Assembly: GCF_000829235.1 (NCBI RefSeq)
Contig: NZ_AP012549.1
Coordinates: forward strand, 390,001-422,000
Direction: 5' to 3'
Origin: a cyanobacterium endosymbiont of Epithemia turgida isolate EtSB Lake Yunoko
Lineage (GTDB): Bacteria; Cyanobacteriota; Cyanobacteriia; Cyanobacteriales; Microcystaceae
Length of the DNA: 32,000 nt
The notes beneath the pieces were generated by a model. It searched no databases and was not told the origin of the DNA. It saw only the letters and a list, made by a program, of their open reading frames with translations. Both the position numbers and the translations under genes were made by a program. Positions 3,470-32,000 of the stretch are shown here, piece by piece. Numbering within the stretch: position 1 is the stretch's first letter; each line of letters begins with the position of its first letter.

Positions 3470-3884
3470 CGATTTTAAGCAGTGACTATTTGGTCTTCTA
3501 CCACTGTATTGCAAAATTCTCAAACTTTCACTGTGAACTATAACTTAAACTTGTTTGAGGACAAAGAAAAATACAAAGTAATGGAACCAAAAGAAATATA
3601 TAAATTATAGATTAAAACAAAAGCTGACGATCTATCTTTCGTTGTTTCATCTCCCAATAGTATAACGAAAAAATACTCAATAGATAGAAATTTTAACTCA
3701 TCAGATTTAATAACACTTCTTGTTTATCTATTTTGGTAAAAAATTATGATCAACTCCTTTCCTCAAAATAGAAGAGCAGCAAGACCATAATTGCAATTAA
3801 GACTCTGACTCAACAAGACTCTAAAATCTGTAGCAATTTACTTTTAAGTTCAGAAGTATCCCCTTTTTTATTTCTTTAAAATTA

Positions 3885-3932
3885 ACATAACACAAAGTAG
3901 CTTAATATGAATTAAGCTACTTTGTGTTATGT
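3885..3932. repeat. Perfect hairpin/inverted repeat: 22-bp stem, 4-nt loop (acataacacaaagtagcttaat-atga-attaagctactttgtgttatgt)
   Basis: I checked base by base: 3885-3906 pairs perfectly with 3911-3932. It lies in a divergent intergenic spacer, not downstream of any surviving gene. Confidence 0.9.
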
Positions 3933-4352
3933 CTACAATAAGTTTTCGGAAAACAAGATAGTGACAATAGTATAAATATATTAAATGTAAAATATATTAC
4001 AGCAAAAAGCTGATATAAAATTTTCTATTTTTTTCTGCAATTAAATGGCAATCATATGTAGACAACCAGTCAAATTATTACTTTTCTAAATAAAATACAA
4101 ATCAAGATATTAATTTTATTTATTAATAAAAATTTAATTGTAATTAAAATTGCAGATCAATTGAACTTATTGGAAATAAATGTATAGGTGATAAATATAA
4201 GTTTGAAAATACCAAATTAATTTTTCAGGAATTACCTATACATTTATCAAAATAAATTGAATAATAATAACTTTTTTTATATCTTCTTCTTTATAAGTAG
4301 CCGCCAACATCAGATAATAGAGAAGATAACCGATATCTAACTCATACTTCTC

Positions 4353-4715
4353 ATGAATACTCCTTTCCTTTCCCCCGAAGACTTACCTTTGCAAAGTACG
4401 ACGGACTTCGGACTGCGACGGAAACTTGATGAAATCATCGGTAAATATTTCTACGAATCTTGTGATCGCTCACTCCAGACCTTATTGTCCCAATGTGGCT
4501 GGTATCTTACCAGTTCTTCTAATGTTTTAACTTTGGTGATTACCTGTCCTGATCATTCAACTAATTTACGCATTCTTAAATATGTTACAGCCCTGGGATA
4601 TTATTTAAAAAATTTTACTGAGAACGGAAAAATCCAGATATATCCTCCTGTGGGTGAAGGAACTTCCTTGAAAATTTTCGTCAAACAAGGACGAATCTAT
4701 CAAGACTCTCTTTAA
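4353..4715 (+). CDS. Hypothetical protein (120 aa), function unknown
   Basis: ATG-initiated ORF with balanced, non-low-complexity composition in an otherwise stop-rich spacer. It is followed immediately by a very strong intrinsic terminator. I do not recognise a family. Confidence 0.6.
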   Translation: MNTPFLSPEDLPLQSTTDFGLRRKLDEIIGKYFYESCDRSLQTLLSQCGWYLTSSSNVLTLVITCPDHSTNLRILKYVTALGYYLKNFTENGKIQIYPPVGEGTSLKIFVKQGRIYQDSL

Positions 4716-4775
4716 AAAAACCCTCAGTAAGATGGACAATGCCATCTTACTGAGGGTTTTTTTAAAGAGAGTCTT
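4702..4775. terminator. Bidirectional intrinsic terminator: 34-bp perfect inverted repeat with a 6-nt loop
   Basis: 4702-4735 pairs perfectly with 4742-4775 (checked base by base). The GC-containing core ccctcagtaagatgg/ccatcttactgaggg is flanked by A7 on the left and T7 on the right, giving a U-tract in either transcription direction. The left arm contains the last codons and the TAA stop (4713-4715) of the 120-aa ORF. Confidence 0.75.
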
Positions 4776-6090
4776 ATTACAATTATTAACACCACGAATT
4801 TTACGAGTAGTTGGTGATGATACGGTCAAACTAGACTATAAAATCAAAGTTAAATCTCAGCTAGGCTCAATAGACAATTATATTTTATTCTCTTTCTCCA
4901 ATAATTTTTATTCTAGTGACATCCATCTTGCTCAATGTACTGAAATCTCTCCTTGTAATACTCGTCAAACATTAATGCAGTGCTTGTCTGTAGTTATGGT
5001 AATAATTGTACACTTACCACCTCAACTTTGTTAGGATATTGTTAGTACTTACCCCATGGTTGCCAGGTTTTGCCGTAGAAATAACGTTTTAAGTTGCACA
5101 AAAAAACAACCATTTATCATTATTAATAATAATTTTTCTGGATACTAATTAGAAACTTTTATCTATTGGTCGAACCTAGTCAATAATTCTCCGTCCAGCT
5201 ATAATTAATCAATTATCATTGTAACTGCACATAGCTACCATATTCAATTATGGAGATAAATATCTATCTTTATTTGTAGGAATCTTTTTTAAAGAGCTAT
5301 AGCGAGTTATAATGATAATCTCTGAATAACCAAAGACTTTAAATCAATACAATAGTCTGGGTTGGATAGGTAGGAGTGAGCAAAAATTAGAGTAACACCT
5401 AATAAAAAAATATACTACATAACTATAATTAAAACCACTATCAAAATAGAGATTATTGCATACTCAGAAAATTTTCATTTTGACATGACGCCACAATAGT
5501 TATAGCTAACTTAATTAGTATAATATTGAGCTTTGTATTTTTCTAGATTAACTCTACTAACAAAAGATAGTATTCAAAAACTATAGATATTATCCTAAAT
5601 TAATTCTTTTTACTTGATCTTAAAAAGTAAGGAATAAAGATAATCATTAGAAAACAGTAAAAAAAATTAATGTCAGTTAAGTGAAAACAAAGACAATTAT
5701 TCCGGTGGAATACTTTCCCTTTTTTCTTAGTAACATGACTAACAAAGTGGGCGGAGATTATTAGGACTCAGAATCGGCTCGATTGTAGTCACTATGATAG
5801 ACCCTTAATGCTATAGGGTTTCTTTTTTTAATACTCAGCTTTGGAATATTTTCTTGTGGTTTAAGACACTGTATTCCATACTTGATACATTTATACTCTG
5901 GAGCTTGTTCAATAATTTTCCAATTTTTGGGGTATCAAGATGCCATATCCATTAAACTAGACTGAAACAAAGCATATTATCAATTAATTTTTCTATAGTT
6001 TCCACACCTCTGATACTCCTACAATATGGCACAATAGAAAAAGCTGACTATTATGATAGTCATGTAAAACTGAATTAACTAAAATTTTAA

Positions 6091-6960
6091 ATGATTCTGG
6101 TGAATGCAACTTTTGAAGGATCTACAAAGACTTGTCGCATTGTTTTTCCCCTCACTGCTATTGTCGGACAAGAAGAGATGAAATTGGACTTGCTACTCAA
6201 CGTCATTGACTCTAAAATCGGTGGTGTAATGATTATGCGTGATCGAAGTACTGGAAAATCTACCACTATTCTCGCGTTAGCCGACTTACTTTCTGAAATT
6301 AAGGTAGTAGCTGATGATCCCGTCAACTCTGACCAGAATGATCCTAACTTTATGAGTGAGCGCGTTCGTCAACAACTGAGGAAAAATATTCCTCTCCAAG
6401 TGGTTAGTAAAAAAGTTACGATGGTAGATCTTCCCTTGGGAGCCACTGAAGATAGAGTCTGTGGTTCAATTAATATTGAAAAGACCCTCTCACAGAAGGT
6501 GTGAAAGCTTTTGAACCACAGACTTTTGGCTAGAGCAAACTGTGGTATCATTTACATAGATAAGGTTAATCCTCGATGACCATCATGTAGATGTTCTCCT
6601 TGATTCGGCAGCTAGTGATTGAAATAAAGTAGAACGAAAAGGGGTTTCTATTCGTCATCCCGCACGGGTTTTCCTAGTTGGCTCAGGAAACCCAAAAGAG
6701 GGAGAATTACGACCTCAATTACTTGATTGTTTAGGAATGCACGCAGAAATTAATACCACAAAGGAACCGTAATTAAGGGTGAAAATTGTAGAACAACGTT
6801 CGTAATTTGACAAAAATCCTCAGAAATTCTATATTAGATACCAATTCCAACAAAAAGACCTGCGAAAACACTTAGTTGAAGCTCAAAAACTTCTCAAACA
6901 ATTGGAAATAGAAGAACATTAAGATAAAAAAAGTGTAAATTGAGTGAACTGTAAGAAGTT
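6091..6960 (+). pseudogene. chlI: Mg-chelatase subunit I (ChlI), multiply disrupted and 3'-truncated
   Basis: The N-terminal 137 codons read FPLTAIVGQEEMKLDLLLNVIDSKIGGVMIMRDRSTGKSTT...MVDLPLGATEDRVCGSINIEK, versus canonical ...IMGDRGTGKSTT..., so the P-loop glycines are already mutated. The rest of the ChlI sequence continues through at least two frameshifts (EGVKAFEP / LLARANCGIIYIDKVN / LDDHHVDVLLDSAAS). It also carries in-frame stops: TGA replacing Trp at 6620-6622, then EP*LRV, RS*FD and EEH*DKK. Similarity fades near 6960, before the AAA+ lid/C-terminal region. Confidence 0.9.
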
Positions 6961-7154
6961 TAAATTTTTAAAAAGCATTTTCTTTACTGTAATAGAATTG
7001 GGGAAATTAGAAGTTTGCAAGTTTTTTTTATCTTAAATTATCTGTACTATTTTTGATTATCTTTCTATGATTTTATTTGAGCTAAACCAGAAAAAATTCG
7101 TTAAAATCAAAGTGAATTAGAAAATCGCTTTACCATTGACCGGCTCACAGTTCT

Positions 7155-7718
7155 ATGACTTCTGTAATCGCTGTAGAAAAAGAAAAGTTAGAAAATCCTC
7201 CGTTAGATATTCACTATTTGGGTGACCGCATTTTACGTCAACCAGCTAAACGTATTGCGAGAGTTGATAACTCTGTTCGCAAACTAATTAAAGAAATGCT
7301 ACAAACTATGTATAGTTCTCATGGAATCGGTTTGGCTGCAACTCAAGTAGGGATTCATAAACAATTAATTGTTATAGATTGTGCTCCTGATGATTCGGAC
7401 AATAAACCTGTGGTTTTAATTAATCCTAAAATTACCAGTATTTCTAAAGAATTATCTCTGTTTGAAGAAGGTTGTTTAAGTATTCCAGGAGTTTATTTAA
7501 ATGTTACTCGTCCTGAAATGATTGAAGTATCTTTTAAAGATGAACAAGGAAAACCTCGCAAGCGACAAGCAACTGATTTATTAGCACGGGTTATTCAACA
7601 TGAAATAGATCACCTCAATGGAGTGATGTTTGTTGATCGAGTTGGCAATGGTTTAGCATTAACTGAAGCTTTACAAAAGAATGGATTTTCTCCACAAGCT
7701 ATCAGACCGGTCAAATAA
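7155..7718 (+). CDS. def: Peptide deformylase
   Basis: 187-aa ORF with all three PDF motifs: GIGLAATQVG, EGCLSIPG and QHEIDHLNG. Confidence 0.95.
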   Translation: MTSVIAVEKEKLENPPLDIHYLGDRILRQPAKRIARVDNSVRKLIKEMLQTMYSSHGIGLAATQVGIHKQLIVIDCAPDDSDNKPVVLINPKITSISKELSLFEEGCLSIPGVYLNVTRPEMIEVSFKDEQGKPRKRQATDLLARVIQHEIDHLNGVMFVDRVGNGLALTEALQKNGFSPQAIRPVK

Positions 7719-8185
7719 CCAATAATTAATTGGTTACTAAAAAGAGGCAATTTTTTTATCTTTAAAAGTAGCTTACTATTGTCGGGGTTGTCCATTATTC
7801 TAATTGTAGACGTTAGTCCTATCTTTGAACTTTCGTCACAAATCTTTGATTGCTCAAAATGATCACAAGTATTATTTTAACCATTAGCACTTTCTCAACG
7901 GCTCTTTTTTTGTGCGCCGTGTGAGACACAAAAATCAACATAGAATAATCCCAACTCTTCCTCTAGAGCTAGGCTTAATGATGAGAGTGTCGATCTCGAC
8001 AATGTTAACTGTGAATGAGTTATATTTAAGGTCTAATTTACTATTAACAACTTAGCTTACAAAATATCAAGAGCAACTACTTAAACTCTCCCTAAAAATA
8101 CTATCAAAAACTACAGGAATCTTATCCTTTTGTCGTAAATCTATAAAAATATCTTTTATTTAAGTACTTTTGTCAAGATTTCACA

Positions 8186-10420
8186 CTATTTATTGACACG
8201 GTGAACATTGACTATATCACTTAAATTCCGAATTTGAGTGATAACATATTCTAATTGTTGACGATCACGAATATCAATTCGCAAGTTAATTATTGCAGGC
8301 TTACTACGACTGGTTTTTACCCCAGCATTACGAACATTAATGTTATTGTCACTGAGACGGGATAAAATATCCTTAAGGATTCCTACACGATCGAGAGCTT
8401 CAATAAAAATATCCACCGGATAGGTTTGGGTATATCTATTGTCTTCTGTGGGATTCCAACGAACTGGAATCAAGCGGTCACCAAGTACATCATTTATGTT
8501 AGAACATCCTTGACAGTGAATTGAAATACCTCTAGCCCCCTTTGTCACTATACCGATAATGGGTTCTCCGGGCAAAGGGTAACAGCAGCCAGCAATATTG
8601 TAAACTAACCCTTCAACGCCTATAATCGGAGATCTATTTTGCTTGACTGGACAAAAAGCAAGAGGAGAAGGGTTGGAAGCTCGAATTTTATCATTGGAAA
8701 TTTCTTCTTCTTGAACCTTAACAGTATTTTCTCTAAGTCGGTTAGCGACTTGGTTTAGGGTAATTTCTCCATACCCTAAAGCCGCTAGTAAGTCCTCAAC
8801 AGATTGATAATTAAAGCGTTCAGCGACACTTTGCATGGGATCAGATTTAAGCAAAGCATCTAAGCCATTTTTACCTAATTCCTTTTCTAACATCTCGCGT
8901 CCTCGGGAAAAATTTTCGTCTCGGTGTGATCGCTTATACCATTGACGAATACGATTTCGCGCACTGGGAGTCACTACAAAATTAAGCCAGTCTAAACTAG
9001 GGTGGGCGTTTTTCTGGGTAATAATTTCTACAATATCTCCATTATTAAGAGGAATATCTAAAACCGACCACTTTTCATTGACTCTTGCTCCTTTCATGTG
9101 GTTTCCGACTTCTGTATGGATACTATAGGCAAAATCAACGGGCGTAGCCCCTCGCGCTAGGGCAACTACATCTCCTTGAGGGGTAAAGACATAAACATCA
9201 TCATTAAAGAGATTATCTTTGAGAGTATCCACATATTCTTGAGCATCTTGGAGATCTTTTTGCCATTCGAGAAGTTGACGCAACCAGGTAAATTTTTTAT
9301 CCTCTTCAGAAAGAGTAGTATAGTTCGATTTCCCTGTCTCTTTATATTTCCAGTGAGCAGCGATCCCATATTCAGCTATGTGGTTCATCTCCAGGGTCCG
9401 AATTTGTACTTCTAGGGGACGACCCGTTAACCCCACTACCGTTGTATGAAGAGATTGATAACAGTTGGGTTTTGGTAGTCCAATATAATCCTTAAAACGC
9501 CCAGGAATTGGTTTAAATATGTCATGAACTACCGCTAAGGCCCGATAGCATTCCTCATTATTGTGAACAATGATTCTTAGAGCAGCAATGTCGTAAATTT
9601 GATGAAATCCTTTTTGCCGCCGCTGCATTTTATGATAAATTCCGTAAAGATGTTTGGGGCGAGCTTGTAAGTCCAACACTCGAATTCCAACACTTTCTAA
9701 GCGTTGACGTAAGGTTTCTTTTATTTTTTCTAAACGAGTTTCGCGATCACTACGTTTTTCGGCTACTAAGGATTGAATTTCTCGATAGGCTTCTGGTTCC
9801 AAATATTTAAAGGATAGATCTTCTAAGTCCCACTTCAACCGCCAAATTCCTAAACGATTTGCTAAAGGAGCAAAAATTTCTCTAGTTTCCAGGGCTATAC
9901 GTTTTTGCTTTTCTGGTTTAAGGTGTTCTAGGGTTCGCATATTGTGTAGGCGATCAGCTAATTTCACCACAATTACCCGAATATCTTTAGCCATTGCTAA
10001 GAACATCCGACGAAAATTTTCAGCCTGGTGTTCTGTTTTACTCGAAAAATTGAATTTAGATAGCTTAGTTACCCCTGCCACTAAGTTTTGTATTTCCTGC
10101 CCAAACTGTTCCTCAATTTGTTCTAGAGTGACATCCGTATCTTCTACTACGTCATGGAGAAATCCGGCCGCAATCATAGCTTTATCTCCACCTAAATCCC
10201 GCAATAACCCTGCTACAGCGATGGGATGTGCAATATATGGTTCTCCCGATTGACGATATTGTCCTTCATGTAGTTGATAGGCAAAATTGAACGCCCGACA
10301 GATTAGACCAATATCTTCATTATCTTGATCAGATTGATAGGTAACCAGAAATTGATTCAGCCAGTCAGGAAAAGATAGTTTAATATGTTCTGGTTCAGGA
10401 TAAGTAGCTACTAGGTTCAT
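8186..10420 (-). CDS. spoT: Bifunctional (p)ppGpp synthetase/hydrolase (RelA/SpoT homologue)
   Basis: It has an HD hydrolase domain (HDVVEDT), a RelA/SpoT synthetase domain (YRALAVVHDIFKPIPGRFKDYIGLPKPNCYQSLHTTV), a TGS region (VYVFTPQGDVVALARGATPVDFAY) and a C-terminal ACT domain. I placed the start at ATG 10420 (MNLVATYPEPEH); the ORF-track start at 10498 adds 26 hydrophobic residues of doubtful reality. Confidence 0.93.
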   Translation of the reverse strand: MNLVATYPEPEHIKLSFPDWLNQFLVTYQSDQDNEDIGLICRAFNFAYQLHEGQYRQSGEPYIAHPIAVAGLLRDLGGDKAMIAAGFLHDVVEDTDVTLEQIEEQFGQEIQNLVAGVTKLSKFNFSSKTEHQAENFRRMFLAMAKDIRVIVVKLADRLHNMRTLEHLKPEKQKRIALETREIFAPLANRLGIWRLKWDLEDLSFKYLEPEAYREIQSLVAEKRSDRETRLEKIKETLRQRLESVGIRVLDLQARPKHLYGIYHKMQRRQKGFHQIYDIAALRIIVHNNEECYRALAVVHDIFKPIPGRFKDYIGLPKPNCYQSLHTTVVGLTGRPLEVQIRTLEMNHIAEYGIAAHWKYKETGKSNYTTLSEEDKKFTWLRQLLEWQKDLQDAQEYVDTLKDNLFNDDVYVFTPQGDVVALARGATPVDFAYSIHTEVGNHMKGARVNEKWSVLDIPLNNGDIVEIITQKNAHPSLDWLNFVVTPSARNRIRQWYKRSHRDENFSRGREMLEKELGKNGLDALLKSDPMQSVAERFNYQSVEDLLAALGYGEITLNQVANRLRENTVKVQEEEISNDKIRASNPSPLAFCPVKQNRSPIIGVEGLVYNIAGCCYPLPGEPIIGIVTKGARGISIHCQGCSNINDVLGDRLIPVRWNPTEDNRYTQTYPVDIFIEALDRVGILKDILSRLSDNNINVRNAGVKTSRSKPAIINLRIDIRDRQQLEYVITQIRNLSDIVNVHRVNK

Positions 10421-10712
10421 AGAATAATGAATGGTTAACAGGGCGATAATAGACAGAACAAGACAACTATGGTAGCCGAAAGCAAAATTACTGTACAAAT
10501 TAACGATTGACTGCCGTTTAACGAAAAAAGTAATAAAAAAGGCGCCCAGAAACTAAATATGTGTTTTTTCTTTGTATCTTCTACAGAAAGACTAACTAAA
10601 AGAAATCAATGCTTGCTTGAATAGTTTTAGTCGAAGAAAAGGTTTAGTACCAATACAATTAACTTCTATGGTCTATCATAATTAAATATATCTTAGCTCG
10701 ATCCTGTTGTTT

Positions 10713-11060
10713 ATGTTATCGAAACCTCATCAAAAATTGTTAGCTTCCTTGATTACCCTCAAAGATCAAGTCATGATGAAGGACATAGACTCGAAACGAT
10801 TATCCCAAAATTTTCGAATGTTACAAGAAATTTTCCAAAATTATATTTTGGGAGCAACAACTGAGAATTTAGAGAATTCTGTTGTCTCTTCTTGGCAATC
10901 TATCCAGACTGAAATCCATCGGACGTTACGCTTGTTGATAACTGATTTTCTATTTTTACAGTCTTCCCACAAGCGAAGTACAGAAGAACAACGATTAGAA
11001 ATCGTGCTTGATCACATTGAAAAACTGATAGGTTATTGTCAAGTTATTCTAAATAGGTAA
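10713..11060 (+). CDS. Hypothetical protein (about 115 aa)
   Basis: ORF with the first ATG at 10713 (the track start 10707 is TTG). It is predicted helical with non-random composition and a convergent terminator-like hairpin downstream. It vaguely resembles small conserved cyanobacterial proteins, but I cannot name the family with confidence. Confidence 0.55.
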   Translation: MLSKPHQKLLASLITLKDQVMMKDIDSKRLSQNFRMLQEIFQNYILGATTENLENSVVSSWQSIQTEIHRTLRLLITDFLFLQSSHKRSTEEQRLEIVLDHIEKLIGYCQVILNR

Positions 11061-21589: not shown

Positions 21590-21949
21590 ACAACAAAAAC
21601 TATAAATAGTTTAACCTATAATGTACTATTATTTCATAAAATTATTTCTTGTATAAGAGATAAATGTAATTATTTTCAATGAAATTTTTTAAGGGGTTTT
21701 TTTAAAAAAATAAATTTGTCTATTTTAGAGATTATATAGTCATATTTATTATTTAATAGTAAACGGTTTAAATTAATAATAATTAACAAATAATGACCAC
21801 CATTAGTGTTATGATCTGAATCGGTTTAGTTTACCTGTATAAGAGAGTCTCAAAATTACCAGAAGACTTATCGTAAAAAAAAATTGTGAAATAGTTATGT
21901 TAATTATGTTAATCTTGTAGCCTTAGTTTTTAAATTCAGAGTAGAACTA

Positions 21950-22215
21950 AATGCTCACAATGACTATTTTCGTTAAAATTGCCTTGTCACCAATTAATTA
22001 TTGAAATAATTAATTTTAATTGGATTGAGTGGAACAAATAAAGATATTTAATGTTGATGTTTTTAAATATTTTTTTGAATATTATTTAAGTAACACTGCA
22101 CGGCATAGATCATAAAAAGATTACGCATCACTAGTACTTATAGTAATATTTTATTATTTCATGTTTTATTTAAATGTTTAAAATACTATTTTGATAATTT
22201 ATTTACCTTTGAAAG
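21950..22215 (+). pseudogene. Decayed partial duplicate of the priA 3' end (corresponds to priA about 21230-21565)
   Basis: In the core, 22010-22042 matches priA 21311-21343 at 31 of 33 nt and translates LILIGLSGTNK versus PriA LILIRLSGTNK. Upstream, ALSPINY* compares with VLSYPPYG and AHNDYFR with SHDYQGF. Collinear downstream anchors are ctgcac (21423 / 22096), atattttatta (21468 / 22146) and acctttga (21557 / 22205). Stops and frameshifts occur throughout. Boundaries are approximate. Confidence 0.55.
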
Positions 22216-23317
22216 TACAACTTGTAATCTAGAGAATATTTCACACTAAAATCTCACAAAAATTTCAAAAAATATTAAATGTGCAGAACTAAATAGACAA
22301 AATGAAATGATCTCATTTATCGTCTAGTAAATATTGCTCTTTTAGGCTTGTGACAATATGTCAATAAATAAAAATTAAAAGTTTTATATTGCAATATTTA
22401 TTAAATTTAAAAAATTAATGATCATTCAAAATAGCTAAAAATAATTATTATTTTCAGAATTAATTTAATAAAAAATTAGATAATAGAAAGTATACTGACA
22501 AATAGTTTTTATAAAAAAAAGTAATTTTAAAACTAGTTAGGTAGTCGCTAAGTACTACAATATATGGGATAAGAAACAAATTAAATCTCGACAATAGAAA
22601 TTACCTAAGATGACTGCTAATATTTAGCGAATCTACTTTGAGAACTAGTATTGCTGAAAGTTAATCTAAAATATTTAATGAATTAATCTTCTACTATTTT
22701 TTAGACTATAGAGTGTGCAATTATGATAGTGATCTCGAACATTATCTATCATCCAAAGCTTACACGCACTACAAAATGATAAAAAAAGTTAAACGAAAAC
22801 TAATTGATATGATTCTAGGTTTTTTATCTAAACAAATACCATTACGGATAATATCAGGTACTATTTAGTATAGGCAAATATTTTACTTAAAGTTTTTATA
22901 CTGGCGTGACTAGTAATTACTTGCTCCGTTAAGAATTACTATTGTGCTAGACTAACTAAAATGACAAGATCAGATAGAGGATCTATGAAAACTTTTAAGT
23001 TTAGAAGTAGTGACTAGTTATGAAACGAAAACACAAGGAATAAAACTAGAAAAAATCAAAAAAAGATAAATTGCTAATAATTAGACTTTTTATGATCGTT
23101 GACTTCAAATTCAATGGTAATTTTTTGATTGTGCTTAATAACTCTTAATATGTGAGAGAGTAAACTAAATACTTAATTCTAGATTAGGACTAAGAATTGA
23201 TTAAGTTTCCTAGAATATTGATTAACTTAGTCTAGTTATCGAGCATATCTGTCGACAAGAAAACCTAGTTGACTATTTGCTCGACGAATGTTTTATTTAT
23301 CCTAAATTTGTCAGAAA

Positions 23318-24283
23318 ATGGAAGTAGAGTTAACTGTAGTAGAAAAAAGTGATCGTCTTGATCGTTGTTTATCCCAACTTTTAAAAGATATCTCCCGATC
23401 ACGTCTCCAAAAACTCATTCAACAGGGAAATGTTCAGGTTAACCGTCAAATTTGTACTAATAAGAAAATTAAAGTTAGTTTAGGCGATCATCTACTTATC
23501 TCTTTTCCTCCTCTTCAACCATCGAATCTTGAACCAGAACCCATTCCACTCGATATTCTTTACGAAGATGACTCCCTTATTATCATTAACAAACCCGCAG
23601 GGTTAGTTGTTCATCCAGCCCCTGGACATCCTACTAAAACATTAGTCCATGGACTGTTGTATTATTTTCCTGAATTAGCAGGAATTGCAGGAGTACAACG
23701 ACCAGGAATTGTCCATCGTCTTGATAAAGATACAACAGGAGCGTTAATGGTAGCAAAAACTGATTATGCCCACCAGCACCTACAAAGTCAACTAAAAACA
23801 AAAACAGCGCGACGAGAGTATTTAGGGATAGTTTACGGTGGTTTTCATTTTCAGTCACCGGGAAATTTTTCTACTCACGATCACAAGGAACATGGCACAA
23901 TTAACTTACCTATTGGCCGTCATCGAGTTAATCGCAAAAAAATGGCAGTGGTTCCTGTGGAAAAAGGAGGACGCGAGGCGGTCACTCATTGGGAAATGTT
24001 AGAAAAGTTAGGGAACTATACTCTAGTTAAATTTCGACTAGAAACCGGACGCACGCATCAAATACGGGTTCATAGTAGTTATTTTGGTCATCCAATTGTA
24101 GGTGATCCACTGTATTCTTCTAAAAGATCGGTCGGAGTAAATTTAACAGGTCAGGCTTTACACGCTCATAAGTTGAGTTTAGAACATCCAGTTACAGGAA
24201 AACCAATTGAGGTAGTCGCCCCTTTTCGAGAGGCTTTTACTAAACTTTTGACTACATTGCGTAAACGATATTCAAACACTTGA
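23318..24283 (+). CDS. rluD: 23S rRNA pseudouridine synthase, RluA/RluD family
   Basis: N-terminal S4 RNA-binding domain (RLDRCLSQLL...SRSRLQKLIQQGNVQVN) and catalytic motif HRLDKDTTGALMVAKT, followed by TGRTHQIRVH. Confidence 0.92.
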   Translation: MEVELTVVEKSDRLDRCLSQLLKDISRSRLQKLIQQGNVQVNRQICTNKKIKVSLGDHLLISFPPLQPSNLEPEPIPLDILYEDDSLIIINKPAGLVVHPAPGHPTKTLVHGLLYYFPELAGIAGVQRPGIVHRLDKDTTGALMVAKTDYAHQHLQSQLKTKTARREYLGIVYGGFHFQSPGNFSTHDHKEHGTINLPIGRHRVNRKKMAVVPVEKGGREAVTHWEMLEKLGNYTLVKFRLETGRTHQIRVHSSYFGHPIVGDPLYSSKRSVGVNLTGQALHAHKLSLEHPVTGKPIEVVAPFREAFTKLLTTLRKRYSNT

Positions 24284-24375
24284 TAAAACAAGGTAAAAAA
24301 AGTAATTTGTATTTTACAAATGAAGTATGTTGTTAACCAGAAAATTTTTTGAATATTTTTATTAAAATACTTTAG

Positions 24376-24892
24376 GAAATTTTAGAGTCTTGCCGCTCTA
24401 GTACTACTTTGTGGGGAATAGCAGCCTCAGTAGGGGTAATTGGTATTTTGGGGCTGAACTATCGAGCTATTCCAAAATTTACTTCCTCGTTGTTAGAGGT
24501 ACGGGTAGACTGAAATTTATTTCTCAAGGAATAGCTCTTCTATTCTATGGGGTTGTAAGTTCGGCTTATGAACTCTGTCTCTGGTCTAGTATTATTTTAA
24601 ACATCGGAGAAGGCTATGACAAATCCAATAAAGAAACGGGCAAATTAAGCATATTTCGCTGGAGGTAGAAGTTTCTTGGCAAAAGCATCGGATCGAATTT
24701 AAAGATGTCCAAGCAGCTATACGGACTGATATAAAATAAGGGTTAAATGTCACACGAAAACTGTATGTACGGCTGAAGCAATATAGAAAAGTTTCCCTGA
24801 TTCGCACAGGACAGTCTATTTCTTTTTCAAGACTAGAAAACCAAGAGGCTGAATTGGCTTGTTTTTGGGGAGTTCCCTTCTAGGGCTTATAA
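24376..24892 (+). pseudogene. ycf4: Photosystem I assembly protein Ycf4, frameshifted with premature stops
   Basis: The Ycf4 sequence is spread over three frames. The segments are EILESCRSSTTLWGIAASVGVIGILG (frame of 24376), GAELSSYSKIYFL...FISQGIALLFYGVVSSAYELCLWSSIILNIGEGYDKSNKETGKLSIFRW (frame of 24411) and HRIEFKDVQAAIRTDIK*GLNVTRKLYVRLKQYRKVSLIRTGQSISFSRLENQEAELACFWGVPF*GL (frame of 24707). Two Glu codons are stops (TAA 24737-24739, TAG 24881-24883), and a stop (24373-24375) lies upstream with no usable start. For comparison, canonical Ycf4 reads ...PQGLVMGLYG...[30 protein letters not shown]...IRVDIKEGLNP...PLTRVGQPL...LENQGAELARFLGVPLEGL. Confidence 0.88.
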
Positions 24893-24923: not shown

Positions 24924-25667
24924 ATGAAAAAATTACTACAGCGTTGGTCAACTATCTTAGCTTGTTTAGTTTTAGTTGGCGGTTTACTCTTAACGGGATG
25001 TTCTAGTCCGTCGGCCACTTCTTCTGATGCCAATACTAGCGAAAACTCAACTCTATCCATGCTGACGGGTCAAGAGAATCAGCTAGATATGGACAATTAT
25101 GTTCCTAGACTTGAAGGTAAAGCAATAGTAGAAATGATTATTAAAGGCTTTCCCGTTACGATTGAAGTCAATGGAAAAGATGCTCCCGTCACCGCTGGAA
25201 ACTTCGTTGATTTGGTTAACCGCGGCTTTTACAATGGATTAATTTTTCATCGGGTAGTTAAAGAACCCCAACCTTTTGTTGCCCAAGGAGGAGATCCCCA
25301 AGGAACTGGAACCGGCAGTTTTGTTGATCCTGATACAAAGAAAACTCGTTATGTTCCCCTTGAGATTAAATTAGAAGGAAATGAAAAACCTATCTATAGT
25401 AAGGCTTTGGGTCGGCAAGGAGCTTCTGTTAAAAAAAATGTAGTTCTATCCCATACTCGTGGTGCAGTAGCTATGGCTCGCTCTCAAATGCCTGATACTG
25501 CCTCTTCCCAATTCTATTTTGCTCTGTCTGATTTAACTTTTCTTGATGGAGACTATGCTGTATTTGCTTATGTCACTAAAGGAATGGATACTGTCGATAG
25601 CCTTAAACAGGGCGATCATATTGATTCAGCTAAAGTGATTTTTGGATTAGAAAACCTAAAACAATAA
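24924..25667 (+). CDS. ppiB: Cyclophilin-type peptidyl-prolyl cis-trans isomerase, lipoprotein/periplasmic
   Basis: Signal peptide with lipobox LLLTGCSS. Cyclophilin core: [37 protein letters not shown]...SSQFYF. Confidence 0.92.
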
Positions 25668-25699
25668 TTTATAGAAGTTTAATACTAAAATACTGACTT

Positions 25700-26520
25700 G
25701 AATGACTTGTTGATGATGGCTTTAGTGAGGCTGAGTATAAAACAGTCATAAAGTTTGAGTCCGTTGGCTTATTTAACAGACTGTAGTTGCTGAAAGTTCA
25801 TGACACGACTACGTTATCGTTAATTCGCAGAATCCTTACGTCTTAGAATGACAGAAAATTACGGACGGAAAGAAAAACAGTAGCTCCATGGTAAAAACAG
25901 TATTTGTTGAAGTCTGGTGCTATGCAGATAAAATATCGTCCTAATTCTACCGGAGTATTTTGTGATTGGGATCACTTCTATAGTTAGGATATTGAACTGT
26001 TCAAACATTTTATACATCACAGGTTCTTCTCCATTACAAGAAAACATTTCTTGATTTAATCAGCCATAATCGTTTTGTGGACTTATGCCTCAGGCAATGA
26101 CGTTGCTGTGCTGTTTTTATGGATTTATCAAAGCTAAATTACACGGACAAGTTTTATCAATTATACTCCGATATAGGTCTTTCGTCAGGTCTTCAAGAAT
26201 AGTGCGCTTCCTGTTCTTGAGAAACTAAAGAGTTATATAGGGTATGTAATTTTTAAAATTTTTAAAAAAGCTATATTGACAAAGACTTCAGGCAACTACT
26301 TGCTATTTACAAAGGATGAAGTAAAAGTTAGTTTAACTGATTTATAAAGTTTTTTTATAGGTATTTTGAAATTAAAACGATTAACGACAAACTTTAAAAT
26401 ATTTCTCGGGTTGAACAAATATTCAATATCCCGAAATATTTGGGATTGTTTTGTTAACTTTTTTGCTCGCCTGATTGCTTATACTTATTTACAAAAAAAA
26501 TTTTTTCTCGGTTTAGGAGA
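25700..26520 (+). mobile_element. Heavily decayed IS982-family-like transposase relic
   Basis: Collinear fragments in shifting frames match family motifs as I remember them. LVDDGFSE corresponds to (V)DDFCQ; VFCDWDHFYS*DIELFKHFIHH to IMTILIxFHxSxYRxFKxFY; HNRFVDL/MPQAMTLLCCFYGFIKAKL to SYNRFVELMP...LC.F. SFINYTPI*V (26150-26179) corresponds to SFIDSTPIKV; VFKNSA...IGYVIFKIF to VFeGiA..GWFYGFKLH; and LKRLTTNFKIF...SRNIWDCFVNFFARLIAYTYLQKK to IETINDQLKNI...SRHRSPINFLVNLVCGLIAY..QPKK. There are many stops, frameshifts and internal deletions. I identified no terminal inverted repeats. Confidence 0.6.
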
Positions 26521-26744
26521 ACAAGATCAGCTAATCTTGTCTACCACTATTTGAAACAACCATTGTAGTTTTTATTTTATTATTGGCGATTGTTATTTAA
26601 GATTATCGTCAACTTTGTTGTTTTTAAACTTACGTCGTCTTAATCATAGATATGACGCTGAGAGAACAAGTTCAATATAAAATCAAAAGCAATAACTCCT
26701 ATGCCGAAATTAGTTTATGTGTCTTCTGTATGTTTTTGAAAATC

Positions 26745-28913
26745 ATGTCCCAAGCCAATGTAGTCAATAATACCTTTAATCTTAAAGATTCTCAATACTA
26801 TTTCAATCGAGAATTAAGCTGGTTAGAATTCAACTATCGAGTCTTGCACGAGGCATTAGACGAACGAACTCCACTTCTAGAACGCCTAAAATTTACCGCA
26901 ATTTTTAGCTCTAACCTTGATGAATTCTTTATGGTTCGCGTAGCAGGGTTAAAACAACAAGTAGCTGCTGGTGTAAGTAAATTAACTCCTGATGGTCGGA
27001 CTCCTTCTCAACAGTTAATCGATATTGGTGCACGTCTTCGTCCTTTAGTTAAACAGCAGGATCATCTGTTTGAATACACCCTCAAAAATCTCTTAATTGC
27101 TCAAGGAATTTACTTAATTAACTACGTCGATCTCGATCAAGAACAACGTACTTATCTACATCAATATTTTGATGATTATATCTTTCCAGTACTAACACCA
27201 TTAGCCGTTGATCCGAGTCATCCTTTCCCTTATATTTCTAACCTAAGTCTAAATTTGGCGGTTGTAGTTCGTGAACCTAACACCGCAAAAGAACATTTTG
27301 CAAGGGTTAAAGTTCCTCAAGTGCTTCCCCGTTTTGTCGTATTCCCCAAGGAATTACGCCATCAAGAAAATGAGCATACTGCTGTCTGGACAGGAGTTCC
27401 TCTTGAACAAGTAATCGCCCATAACTTGGAGGCTTTGTTTCCGGGGATGATTGTGCAAGAATGTCATCCCTTTCGTTTAACTCGCAATGCGGATCTATTA
27501 GTAGAAGAGGATGAAGCTGATGATCTTCTATTAGCCATAGAACAAGAACTTCGCAAACGTCATGTAGGTAAATCTGCAGTTCGTTTAGAAATACACACTT
27601 CTACCCCCAGTAACATTCGAGAACGACTGATAAAAGATTTAGTTTTAGATGAGATTGATGTCTATCATATCGATGGGTTACTAGGACTCAAAGACCTATT
27701 TTATTTTATGTCCATTCCTCGCTCTGATCTTAAAGAGAAACCTTGGAGTGCAGTCATTCCTAGTCCTTTACAACGAATTAAACAAGTTTTTAACAACAAT
27801 GAAGATAGCATAATCCAACAGAAAGGAGAAAATATTTTTTCCCTAATTAAAAATTCTGATTTGTTAGTTCATCATCCCTATGATTCTTTTAGTGCTTCTG
27901 TTGAAGAATTTATTAACCAAGCTGCATATGACCCTAATGTTTTAACAATTAAGATAACCCTTTATCGTACTTCTGGCGATTCTCCTATTGTCAAAGCTTT
28001 AATTGCGGCAGCAGAAAATGGTAAACAAGTAGCAGCCTTAGTGGAATTAAAAGCCAGATTTGATGAAGAAAATAATATTCTTTGGGCGCGGCGCTTAGAA
28101 CAATCTGGCGTCCATGTTGTTTATGGCTTAGCGGGACTCAAAACTCATACTAAAGTAGTCTTAGTAGTGCGACAGGAAGATAATAAAATTCGGCGTTATG
28201 TCCATATTGGAACAGGAAATTACAATTATAAAACTGCTAAGTTATACACCGATCTAGGCTTATTAAGTTGTCGAGAAGAACTGGGGGCTGATTTAACAGA
28301 TTTATTTAATTTTCTCACAGGATATTCTCGTCAGAAATCCTACCGAAAATTGCTAGTCGCTCCCGTCACTATGCGTAATCGCATGATAGAAATGATTTAT
28401 CGTGAAGCACAACATTCTAAAAATGGAGGAAGTGGACGCATTGTAGCTAAAATGAATGCCTTAGTTGATTCCCAGATGATTAGAACCCTCTATGAGGCTT
28501 CTCAGGCAGGAGTTAGAATCGACTTGATTGTGCGGGGAATTTGTTGTCTACGTCCAGGAGTTAAAGGGATTAGTGACAATATTAATGTTATTAGTATTGT
28601 GGGTCGTTTTTTAGAACATTCACGAATTTTTTATTTTCACAATGGTGGAAAAGAAAAAATATATATTGGGAGTGCAGACTGGATGACTCGTAACCTTTCT
28701 CGTCGGGTTGAAGCTATAACTCCTATCGAGGATCCATCAATTATGCAGGAGTTACAAGAAATCTTAGGAATTATGCTAGCTGATAATCGTCAAGCTTGGG
28801 AATTACAGTCTGATGGTAGTTATATTCAAAGACATCCTGGGGAAAATTGTCGAGAACAGAGTGCGCACGAGATTTTCATGAAAATGGCATTAAAGAGTCA
28901 ACAGTTAACATAA
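26745..28913 (+). CDS. ppk: Polyphosphate kinase 1
   Basis: PPK1 N-domain YFNRELSWLEFNYRVLHEA...FSSNLDEFFMVRVAGL, autophosphorylation His region GLKTHTKVVLVVR, and two PLD-like C domains (GTGNYN, FLEHSRIFYF). I placed the start at ATG 26745 (MSQANVVNN); the ORF-track start at 26652 adds 31 unconserved residues. Confidence 0.94.
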   Translation: MSQANVVNNTFNLKDSQYYFNRELSWLEFNYRVLHEALDERTPLLERLKFTAIFSSNLDEFFMVRVAGLKQQVAAGVSKLTPDGRTPSQQLIDIGARLRPLVKQQDHLFEYTLKNLLIAQGIYLINYVDLDQEQRTYLHQYFDDYIFPVLTPLAVDPSHPFPYISNLSLNLAVVVREPNTAKEHFARVKVPQVLPRFVVFPKELRHQENEHTAVWTGVPLEQVIAHNLEALFPGMIVQECHPFRLTRNADLLVEEDEADDLLLAIEQELRKRHVGKSAVRLEIHTSTPSNIRERLIKDLVLDEIDVYHIDGLLGLKDLFYFMSIPRSDLKEKPWSAVIPSPLQRIKQVFNNNEDSIIQQKGENIFSLIKNSDLLVHHPYDSFSASVEEFINQAAYDPNVLTIKITLYRTSGDSPIVKALIAAAENGKQVAALVELKARFDEENNILWARRLEQSGVHVVYGLAGLKTHTKVVLVVRQEDNKIRRYVHIGTGNYNYKTAKLYTDLGLLSCREELGADLTDLFNFLTGYSRQKSYRKLLVAPVTMRNRMIEMIYREAQHSKNGGSGRIVAKMNALVDSQMIRTLYEASQAGVRIDLIVRGICCLRPGVKGISDNINVISIVGRFLEHSRIFYFHNGGKEKIYIGSADWMTRNLSRRVEAITPIEDPSIMQELQEILGIMLADNRQAWELQSDGSYIQRHPGENCREQSAHEIFMKMALKSQQLT

Positions 28914-31533: not shown

Positions 31534-31596
31534 CTATGATTTGAAAGTTTCCTGTTTAAGAATATATAACTAACTATCAACTCTACACAGTCAATA

Positions 31597-32000
31597 ATGA
31601 GGTTACTTTGTCCAAAATACTCAACATCATCAGAAGTTCCTCTATTTATCTATTTGCCAGGAATGGATGGAACGGGGAAGTTATTACATCGACAAGTTAA
31701 AAAATTGACTCAATTTTTTAACGTTCGTTGTTTAGCAATTCCCCAAAATGATTGTAGCAACTGGAATACTTTAGTTTCTCAAACCATTTGTTTAATTGAA
31801 AAAGAACTCAAGCATCATCCTCAATTTTCTTCGGTTTATTTATGTGGAGAATCTTTTGGAGGATGTTTAGCGATCAAACTTGCTCTAAAGTCTCCTGAAT
31901 TAATTAAAAAAATGGTTTTAATCAATCCTGCTTCATCTTTTACACAACGTCCTTTATTAAGTTGGGGAAGTGAATTAATTCAATGGGTACCGGAGATTCT
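31597..32000 (+). CDS. Alpha/beta-fold hydrolase (5' part; runs off the window end)
   Basis: Open frame from ATG 31597 to the window edge: MRLLCPKYSTSSEVPLFIYLPGMDGTGKLLHRQVKKL...VYLCGESFGGCLAIKLALKSPELIKKMVLINPASSF. It has the nucleophile elbow GESFGG and an LPG(M/I)DGTG oxyanion region like the hydrolase domain of plant/cyanobacterial PES-type esterases. It is absent from the ORF track because no stop is reached. Confidence 0.8.
   Translation, partial: MRLLCPKYSTSSEVPLFIYLPGMDGTGKLLHRQVKKLTQFFNVRCLAIPQNDCSNWNTLVSQTICLIEKELKHHPQFSSVYLCGESFGGCLAIKLALKSPELIKKMVLINPASSFTQRPLLSWGSELIQWVPEI

Follow-up and report, generated by a model that had tools for sequence, protein, structure and literature searches.

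The segment at 24376–24892 on the forward strand of this stretch is almost certainly a non-functional relic of ycf4, the gene for a photosystem I (PSI) assembly factor, in the genome of Epithemia turgida's spheroid body (EtSB). (All positions refer to the window, the whole stretch of 32,000 nucleotides that was analysed.) The relic has the properties of a unitary (in situ) pseudogene: it occupies the orthologous position, carries real disabling lesions and diverges neutrally. Its anatomy, the pattern in which its lesions are shared among related endosymbionts and its neutral rate of change were computed here; the link to the loss of PSI comes from published gene tables. The 2014 study of the E. 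turgida spheroid body reportedly portrayed it as an endosymbiont that fixes nitrogen, is non-photosynthetic and abounds in pseudogenes. Since the genome was published as non-photosynthetic, a dead ycf4 is no surprise: a defunct PSI assembly factor is expected there and already known in kind, and the value of the remnant is mainly confirmatory and descriptive.

Anatomy of the ycf4 remnant

The resemblance to ycf4 is genuine and well above chance. Once the reading frames are repaired and the stops masked, the translation matches the Pfam family PF02392 (Ycf4) with 121.8 bits (E 2.7e-35; cut-off 34.7 bits) over profile positions 7–169 of 170, and the NCBIfam model NF002712 ("photosystem I assembly protein Ycf4") with 127 bits over positions 17–188 of 188. 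The latter score stays under the equivalog cut-off of 220 bits, as expected because the sequence has decayed. The closest intact protein found, the 188-aa Ycf4 of the free-living relative "unicellular cyanobacterium SU2" (P0001), is 59% identical to the repaired translation, and as a tblastn query it matched the window in two frames (E 7e-38). In three-frame translation the Ycf4-like peptide passes through three successive frames, the first giving EILESCRSSTTLWGIAASVGVIGILGL, the second KFISQGIALLFYGVVSSAYELCLWSSIILNIGEGYDKSNKETGKLSIFRWR up to a stop, and the third HRIEFKDVQAAIRTDIK, a stop, GLNVTRKLYVRLKQYRKVSLIRTGQSISFSRLENQEAELACFWGVPF, another stop, and finally GL before the terminal stop. 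The first-pass annotation had considered ycf4 recognisable end to end, and the nearly complete PF02392 domain bears this out with one correction: the homology begins at 24376 (GAA), which is codon 16 of SU2 Ycf4, and runs to the native TAA.

The lesions listed below emerged when the segment was aligned, codon by codon, with ycf4 from SU2 and with the orthologous remnant from the endosymbiont of Rhopalodia gibberula (RgSB):

24376..24892, forward strand: ycf4 pseudogene remnant, corresponding to codons 16–188 of an intact ycf4 and spread over three frames
~24444..24450, forward strand: first frameshift, one base missing from a T-rich stretch (SU2 nt 118), common to the E. adnata endosymbiont
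24666–24668, forward strand: third in-frame stop, TAG, made by the 5-nt insertion
24667–24671, forward strand: second frameshift, 5-nt insertion AGAAG after SU2 nt 337, found elsewhere in the E. adnata endosymbiont only
After 24700 (24700..24701), forward strand: 12-nt in-frame deletion of SU2 nt 367–378 (residues TYPI)
24712–24714, forward strand: 3-nt in-frame insertion (AGC duplication) after SU2 nt 389, also in the E. adnata endosymbiont
24737–24739, forward strand: premature stop TAA at codon 138, formerly Glu (GAA)
24881–24883, forward strand: stop TAG for Glu at codon 186, two codons ahead of the native stop
24890–24892, forward strand: native ycf4 stop TAA, in register with the stop of intact ycf4

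Both frameshifts (−1 and +5) and both Glu-to-stop changes (codons 138 and 186) of the first-pass annotation are recovered in this map; the third stop, the 12-nt deletion and the 3-nt insertion had been missing from it. An uninterrupted ycf4 reading frame of ~180–190 codons with a start codon is absent from the locus, codons 1–15 being gone and the rest being broken by two frameshifts and three in-frame stops.

Could the frameshifts and stops be errors of sequencing or assembly, with ycf4 intact in the organism? Both frameshifts lie in low-complexity sequence (one T-rich, one purine-rich), where errors are plausible a priori, and sequencing error was the explanation that the first-pass annotation itself had regarded as a threat to its reading. 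However, an independent assembly of SRR29904087 from Logan (L082) matches the window with 100% identity across 6147 nt, remnant included, and the separately sequenced genome of the E. adnata endosymbiont (CP076462) has the same truncation, frameshifts, in-frame indels and stops. Two of the lesions are found in RgSB and other lineages as well, and some recur in four or more other lineages. In addition, the first 15 codons of ycf4 are missing altogether and its substitution pattern is neutral, neither of which fits an error in reading an intact gene. The chance that ycf4 is intact in the organism is accordingly very remote.

Ancestral position and the deletion at the 5' end

The remnant lies between intact genes that share its orientation:

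23318..24283, forward strand: rluD, intact, RluA-family pseudouridine synthase (ETSB-0260, BAP17141.1; Pfam and NCBIfam matches, exact protein match)
24373..24376, forward strand: deletion junction, matching RgSB sequence downstream of rluD (locus L002, to 5155) on the left and ycf4 (L002 from 9460) on the right
24924..25667, forward strand: ppiB, intact, cyclophilin-type peptidylprolyl isomerase (ETSB-0262, BAP17142.1; PF00160, 132.8 bits, exact protein match)
26652..28913, forward strand: ppk1, intact, polyphosphate kinase (ETSB-0263; Pfam PP_kinase domains), completing the order ycf4-ppiB-ppk

The remnant is thus immediately upstream of ppiB, as originally described, and the same order is found in SU2, where ycf4 and ppiB are separated by only ~32–35 nt. 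Thirty cyanobacterial loci were fetched by way of ppiB, of which 28 have ycf4, one is cut by a contig end and one lacks the gene; in other words, an intact, co-oriented ycf4 precedes ppiB in 28 of the 29 assessable loci, and the 28 include Synechocystis salina and many Nostocales. Published tables give adjacent tags for ycf4 and ppiB in Synechocystis (sll0226/sll0227), Rippkaea (Cyan8802-0559/0558), Crocosphaera (cce_2172/2171) and UCYN-A (ucynA-03520/03530) (PMC12903740), so that the Synechocystis 6803 adjacency given in the first-pass annotation agrees with the table. The synteny comparison that it had proposed thus gives one answer in Synechocystis, Rippkaea and Crocosphaera (from the tables) and in SU2 (from the locus itself). 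Since the adjacency is conserved among relatives, the remnant is the ancestral copy, and the idea of an ancestral locus decaying in place stands: the order is that of SU2, and six other spheroid-body genomes have this remnant in the corresponding position.

Recombination can relocate pieces of genes, so that a stray fragment of ycf4, brought in by duplication or horizontal transfer, is conceivable in principle; nothing specific points to one. The segment stands to ppiB and ppk, in place and in direction, as ycf4 does in free-living relatives; in the six other endosymbiont genomes, the lesions of the orthologous remnants form a nested pattern on the tree of ppiB and ppk; and at synonymous sites the distance between the remnant and SU2 ycf4 is comparable with the divergence seen in the flanking genes. 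The probability of a stray origin is negligible, lower still than that of sequencing error.

Between rluD (0260) and ppiB (0262), the published protein accessions are consecutive while the tag 0261 is skipped, and searches of the window for RNA genes found none, which suggests that the original record annotates a pseudogene, ETSB_0261, at the remnant locus. As for ppk, the open reading frame from the first ATG encodes 753 aa, compared with 722 aa for the published ETSB-0263. Translation probably starts 31 codons further downstream, in which case the ppiB-ppk spacer would be ~1.08 kb, as against ~0.2 kb in SU2.

The absence of a start codon, noted at first reading, reflects a complete deletion of codons 1–15, as established by blastn and targeted alignment. 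In blastn comparisons with the RgSB locus, 22430–24373 of the window corresponds to L002 3179–5155 (rluD and the region downstream), and the window from 24375 on corresponds to L002 from 9460, within ycf4. About 4.3 kb (L002 5156–9459) is therefore missing from the window. In RgSB this interval holds two intact reading frames, 6079–7527 (482 aa) and 7683–9368 (561 aa), which are SsaD (RGRSB-0212) and OgdA (RGRSB-0213), cyanobacterial TCA-bypass enzymes that the tables score as absent in both EtSB and KPI85 (PMC12903740). We take KPI85 to be the E. adnata endosymbiont, in which the same 5' truncation of ycf4 is found. Because the RgSB copy is full-length and retains its ATG, and of these two loci only that of RgSB has the 4.3 kb, a single deletion in the E. 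turgida lineage took ssaD, ogdA and ycf4 codons 1–15 together, leaving rluD as the upstream neighbour of the remnant. A three-way MAFFT alignment had offered a different 5' end, with an ATG>TTG start, an 18-nt deletion and a 5' CAA>TAG change; it was rejected, since the homology of 24284–24375 is with sequence downstream of rluD and not with the 5' end of ycf4. Both ssaD and ogdA survive intact in the endosymbionts of R. gibberula and R. musculus and in the E. pelagica-type one, and are fragmented in two other genomes (L090 and L092).

Decay among the spheroid-body lineages

Eight spheroid-body lineages were compared: in seven the locus holds a dead ycf4, and from the eighth the gene has been deleted entirely. 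Besides EtSB, the eight comprise RgSB (L002) and the endosymbionts of E. adnata (L083, CP076462), R. musculus (L091) and R. sterrenbergii (L092), an E. pelagica-type endosymbiont (L089), an ENA genome (L090) and a lineage represented by two JGI metagenome contigs (L085/L087). The loci L089–L092 are without a called ycf4 gene, and each of their remnants is broken by two or more stops and four or more frameshifting indels.

In a simple neighbour-joining tree of two genes, ppiB and ppk (2662 columns, with SU2 as the outgroup), the ENA genome L090 is basal and the E. pelagica-type lineage branches next, followed by a group made up of the three Rhopalodia-type endosymbionts and a clade in which EtSB, the E. 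adnata endosymbiont and L085 fall together. The lesions nest accordingly. Every remnant-bearing lineage except the basal one has the 12-nt deletion, and the TAA at codon 138 is present in the five inner-group genomes that keep a remnant (the endosymbionts of E. turgida, E. adnata, R. gibberula, R. musculus and R. sterrenbergii). Only EtSB and the E. adnata endosymbiont have the 5' truncation and the −1, +5 and +3 indels. Two characters are less tidy. The TAG at codon 186 is shared by the E. turgida, E. adnata, R. musculus and R. sterrenbergii endosymbionts, and RgSB has CAG there, a distribution that calls for either a reversal or parallel changes; a small deletion at SU2 nt 117–118 is scattered among the lineages and looks recurrent.

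The L085/L087 lineage differs by only 2% from EtSB in ppiB and ppk, and is devoid of any ycf4 remnant, ssaD or ogdA. It keeps ~80 nt 3' of rluD that are missing from EtSB, and common sequence resumes only ~17 nt before ppiB. The loss in this lineage (L085 1818–2132, L087 1103–1417) is a second, independent deletion with different breakpoints, so that the ssaD-ogdA-ycf4 interval has been struck by two independent multi-kb deletions. (Its ppiB is called eight codons longer, at 255 aa.) The lineages together form a decay series for one gene, from a full-length copy that still has its start codon in RgSB, through the clipped and frameshifted copies of EtSB and the E. adnata endosymbiont, to nothing at all in their sister lineage. 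In the E. pelagica-type lineage, the other flank has a peculiarity of its own: rluD is called as two reading frames (L089 1386–2191), one of 58 aa (S4) and one of 205 aa (PseudoU_synth_2), which suggests that rluD itself is disrupted there.

How did ycf4 come to this state? No lesion clearly common to all eight lineages was found, and we therefore infer inactivation in their last common ancestor from the loss of PSI. With PSI lost in the ancestor of the rhopalodiacean spheroid bodies, Ycf4 would have been left without a substrate and purifying selection on its gene would have ended. The gene would then have gathered substitutions and indels at the neutral rate, still upstream of ppiB. The 12-nt deletion presumably arose once the basal lineage had split away, and the TAA at codon 138 while the E. 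turgida group and the Rhopalodia-type endosymbionts were still one lineage. On the branch leading to E. turgida and E. adnata, two frameshifts, the 3-nt insertion and the 4.3-kb deletion (ssaD, ogdA and ycf4 codons 1–15) would have followed, while in the sister lineage, represented by metagenomes only, a different deletion would have erased the remnant.

Neutral divergence, possible roles and the loss of photosystem I

The ycf4 remnant is diverging at a neutral, intergenic rate. Between EtSB and RgSB, its dN/dS is 0.82, compared with 0.21 for ppiB and 0.23 for rluD, and the differences are spread evenly over the three codon positions (37/36/34); by these two measures, purifying selection on the coding sequence of the remnant was not detected. 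Nucleotide identity between the same two genomes is 77.6% in the remnant, 74.4% and 77.8% in intergenic DNA and 90–93% in genes. The comparison with the E. adnata endosymbiont has the same form, at 97.3% in the remnant, 95–98% in intergenic DNA and 98.8–99.5% in the flanking genes.

Might the remnant have taken on a new role? It could act as a promoter or 5' leader for ppiB, which in E. turgida and E. adnata might have come to need one once the 4.3-kb deletion had taken away the original upstream region, or it could encode a small membrane protein, conceivably a thylakoid peptide, from an 85-aa reading frame (24411–24668) that persists in it and spans the second transmembrane region. The short ycf4-ppiB gap of SU2 suggests an operon, so that ancestral co-transcription is probable; the 31 nt from the ycf4 stop to the ppiB start are 94–100% conserved among the endosymbionts; and a remnant has, after all, survived in seven of the eight lineages. 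On the other hand, the divergence of the remnant keeps pace with that of other intergenic DNA, with all codon positions hit equally, and the lesions that bound the 85-aa reading frame vary between lineages. A promoter scan yielded one promoter-like site, located on the minus strand, and this yield is within that of shuffled sequence; no Rfam match or tRNA was found in the remnant or elsewhere in the window, and a terminator scan gave nothing above chance. Moreover, ppiB is intact in L085/L087 with ~17 nt of common upstream sequence and the remnant wholly gone, a sign that the remnant is dispensable. A new role of either kind, as far as the sequence allows one to judge, is thus improbable, although the last few dozen bases of the remnant may retain some part in ppiB expression.

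The reading of the segment as a dead PSI assembly gene is in keeping with what has been published on the host genome. According to published work, the nitrogen-fixing EtSB is without functional PSI or photosystem II (PSII) genes, and most PSI and PSII genes appear absent (PMC5638926). A supplementary table lists psaA, psaB and psaD as absent, psaC (ETSB-0673), psaE and psaL as broken and chlI (ETSB-0249) as broken, and for ycf4 gives "--" with no protein listed (PMC12903740). An intact ycf4 with a PSI gene set elsewhere in the genome, which would have told against the original reading, is not found in the published gene tables (PMC12903740); the supplements of PMC5638926 yielded no ycf4 entry, only "YCF41". 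The 2026 table scores ycf4 as absent ("--"), not broken, in all six rhopalodiacean endosymbionts (PMC12903740). The recognisable remnants 5' of ppiB in seven of eight lineages are a small correction to that score.

The first-pass annotation counted ycf4 as the second loss of a photosynthesis gene in the same 32 kb, and the other one, presumably chlI, is genuine:

6091 to ~6930, forward strand: chlI (Mg-chelatase subunit I) pseudogene (TIGR02030 matches; ETSB-0249 in PMC12903740)

Its reading frame at 6091–6504 corresponds to TIGR02030 positions 1–118 with an altered Walker A motif, a fragment at 6623–6769 corresponds to positions 160–207 in a different frame, and the 3' part is gone. The window also has long AT-rich non-coding stretches:

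3524–6090, 21590–23317 and 25668–26651: GC down to 0.23, 74–78% identity to RgSB

These are probably heavily eroded former genes, and their stop-free segments gave no Pfam or NCBIfam matches. Among stop-free segments of at least 40 aa in the window, a Pfam search added nothing besides chlI and an alpha/beta-hydrolase reading frame at the window end (31570–32000, forward strand; Hydrolase_4 / Abhydrolase_1), which exits the window and has orthologues of 261–263 aa in related endosymbionts. A 117-aa reading frame at 10707–11060 (forward strand) matches NF037954, "heterocyst frequency control protein PatD", with 112 bits and has no Pfam match, in what is a unicellular endosymbiont.

How does the remnant compare with known cases? 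The nearest are the published photosynthesis pseudogenes of the same genome, chlI (ETSB-0249) and psaC (ETSB-0673), which like ycf4 serve photosynthesis alone, became useless when the photosystems were lost and have decayed in place through stops, frameshifts and truncation; they are catalogued as broken, whereas ycf4 is scored "--" (PMC12903740). The ycf4 genes of UCYN-A, Rippkaea (Cyan8802-0559), Crocosphaera (cce_2172), Synechocystis (sll0226) and SU2 (P0001) belong to PF02392 too and are likewise next to ppiB. However, in UCYN-A and the free-living relatives PSI is kept and ycf4 is an intact reading frame of 183–209 aa, whereas two frameshifts and three stops break the EtSB copy, from which 15 codons are missing. 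UCYN-A, which retains both PSI and an intact ycf4 beside ppiB, provides a clean contrast. Plastids offer a further parallel, ycf4 having been lost or pseudogenised in the non-photosynthetic plastid genomes of parasitic plants and colourless algae. The gene is the same and so is the reason, a PSI assembly factor being dispensable where there is no PSI, but EtSB differs from these cases in being a young cyanobacterial endosymbiont with a genome that is still of bacterial size.
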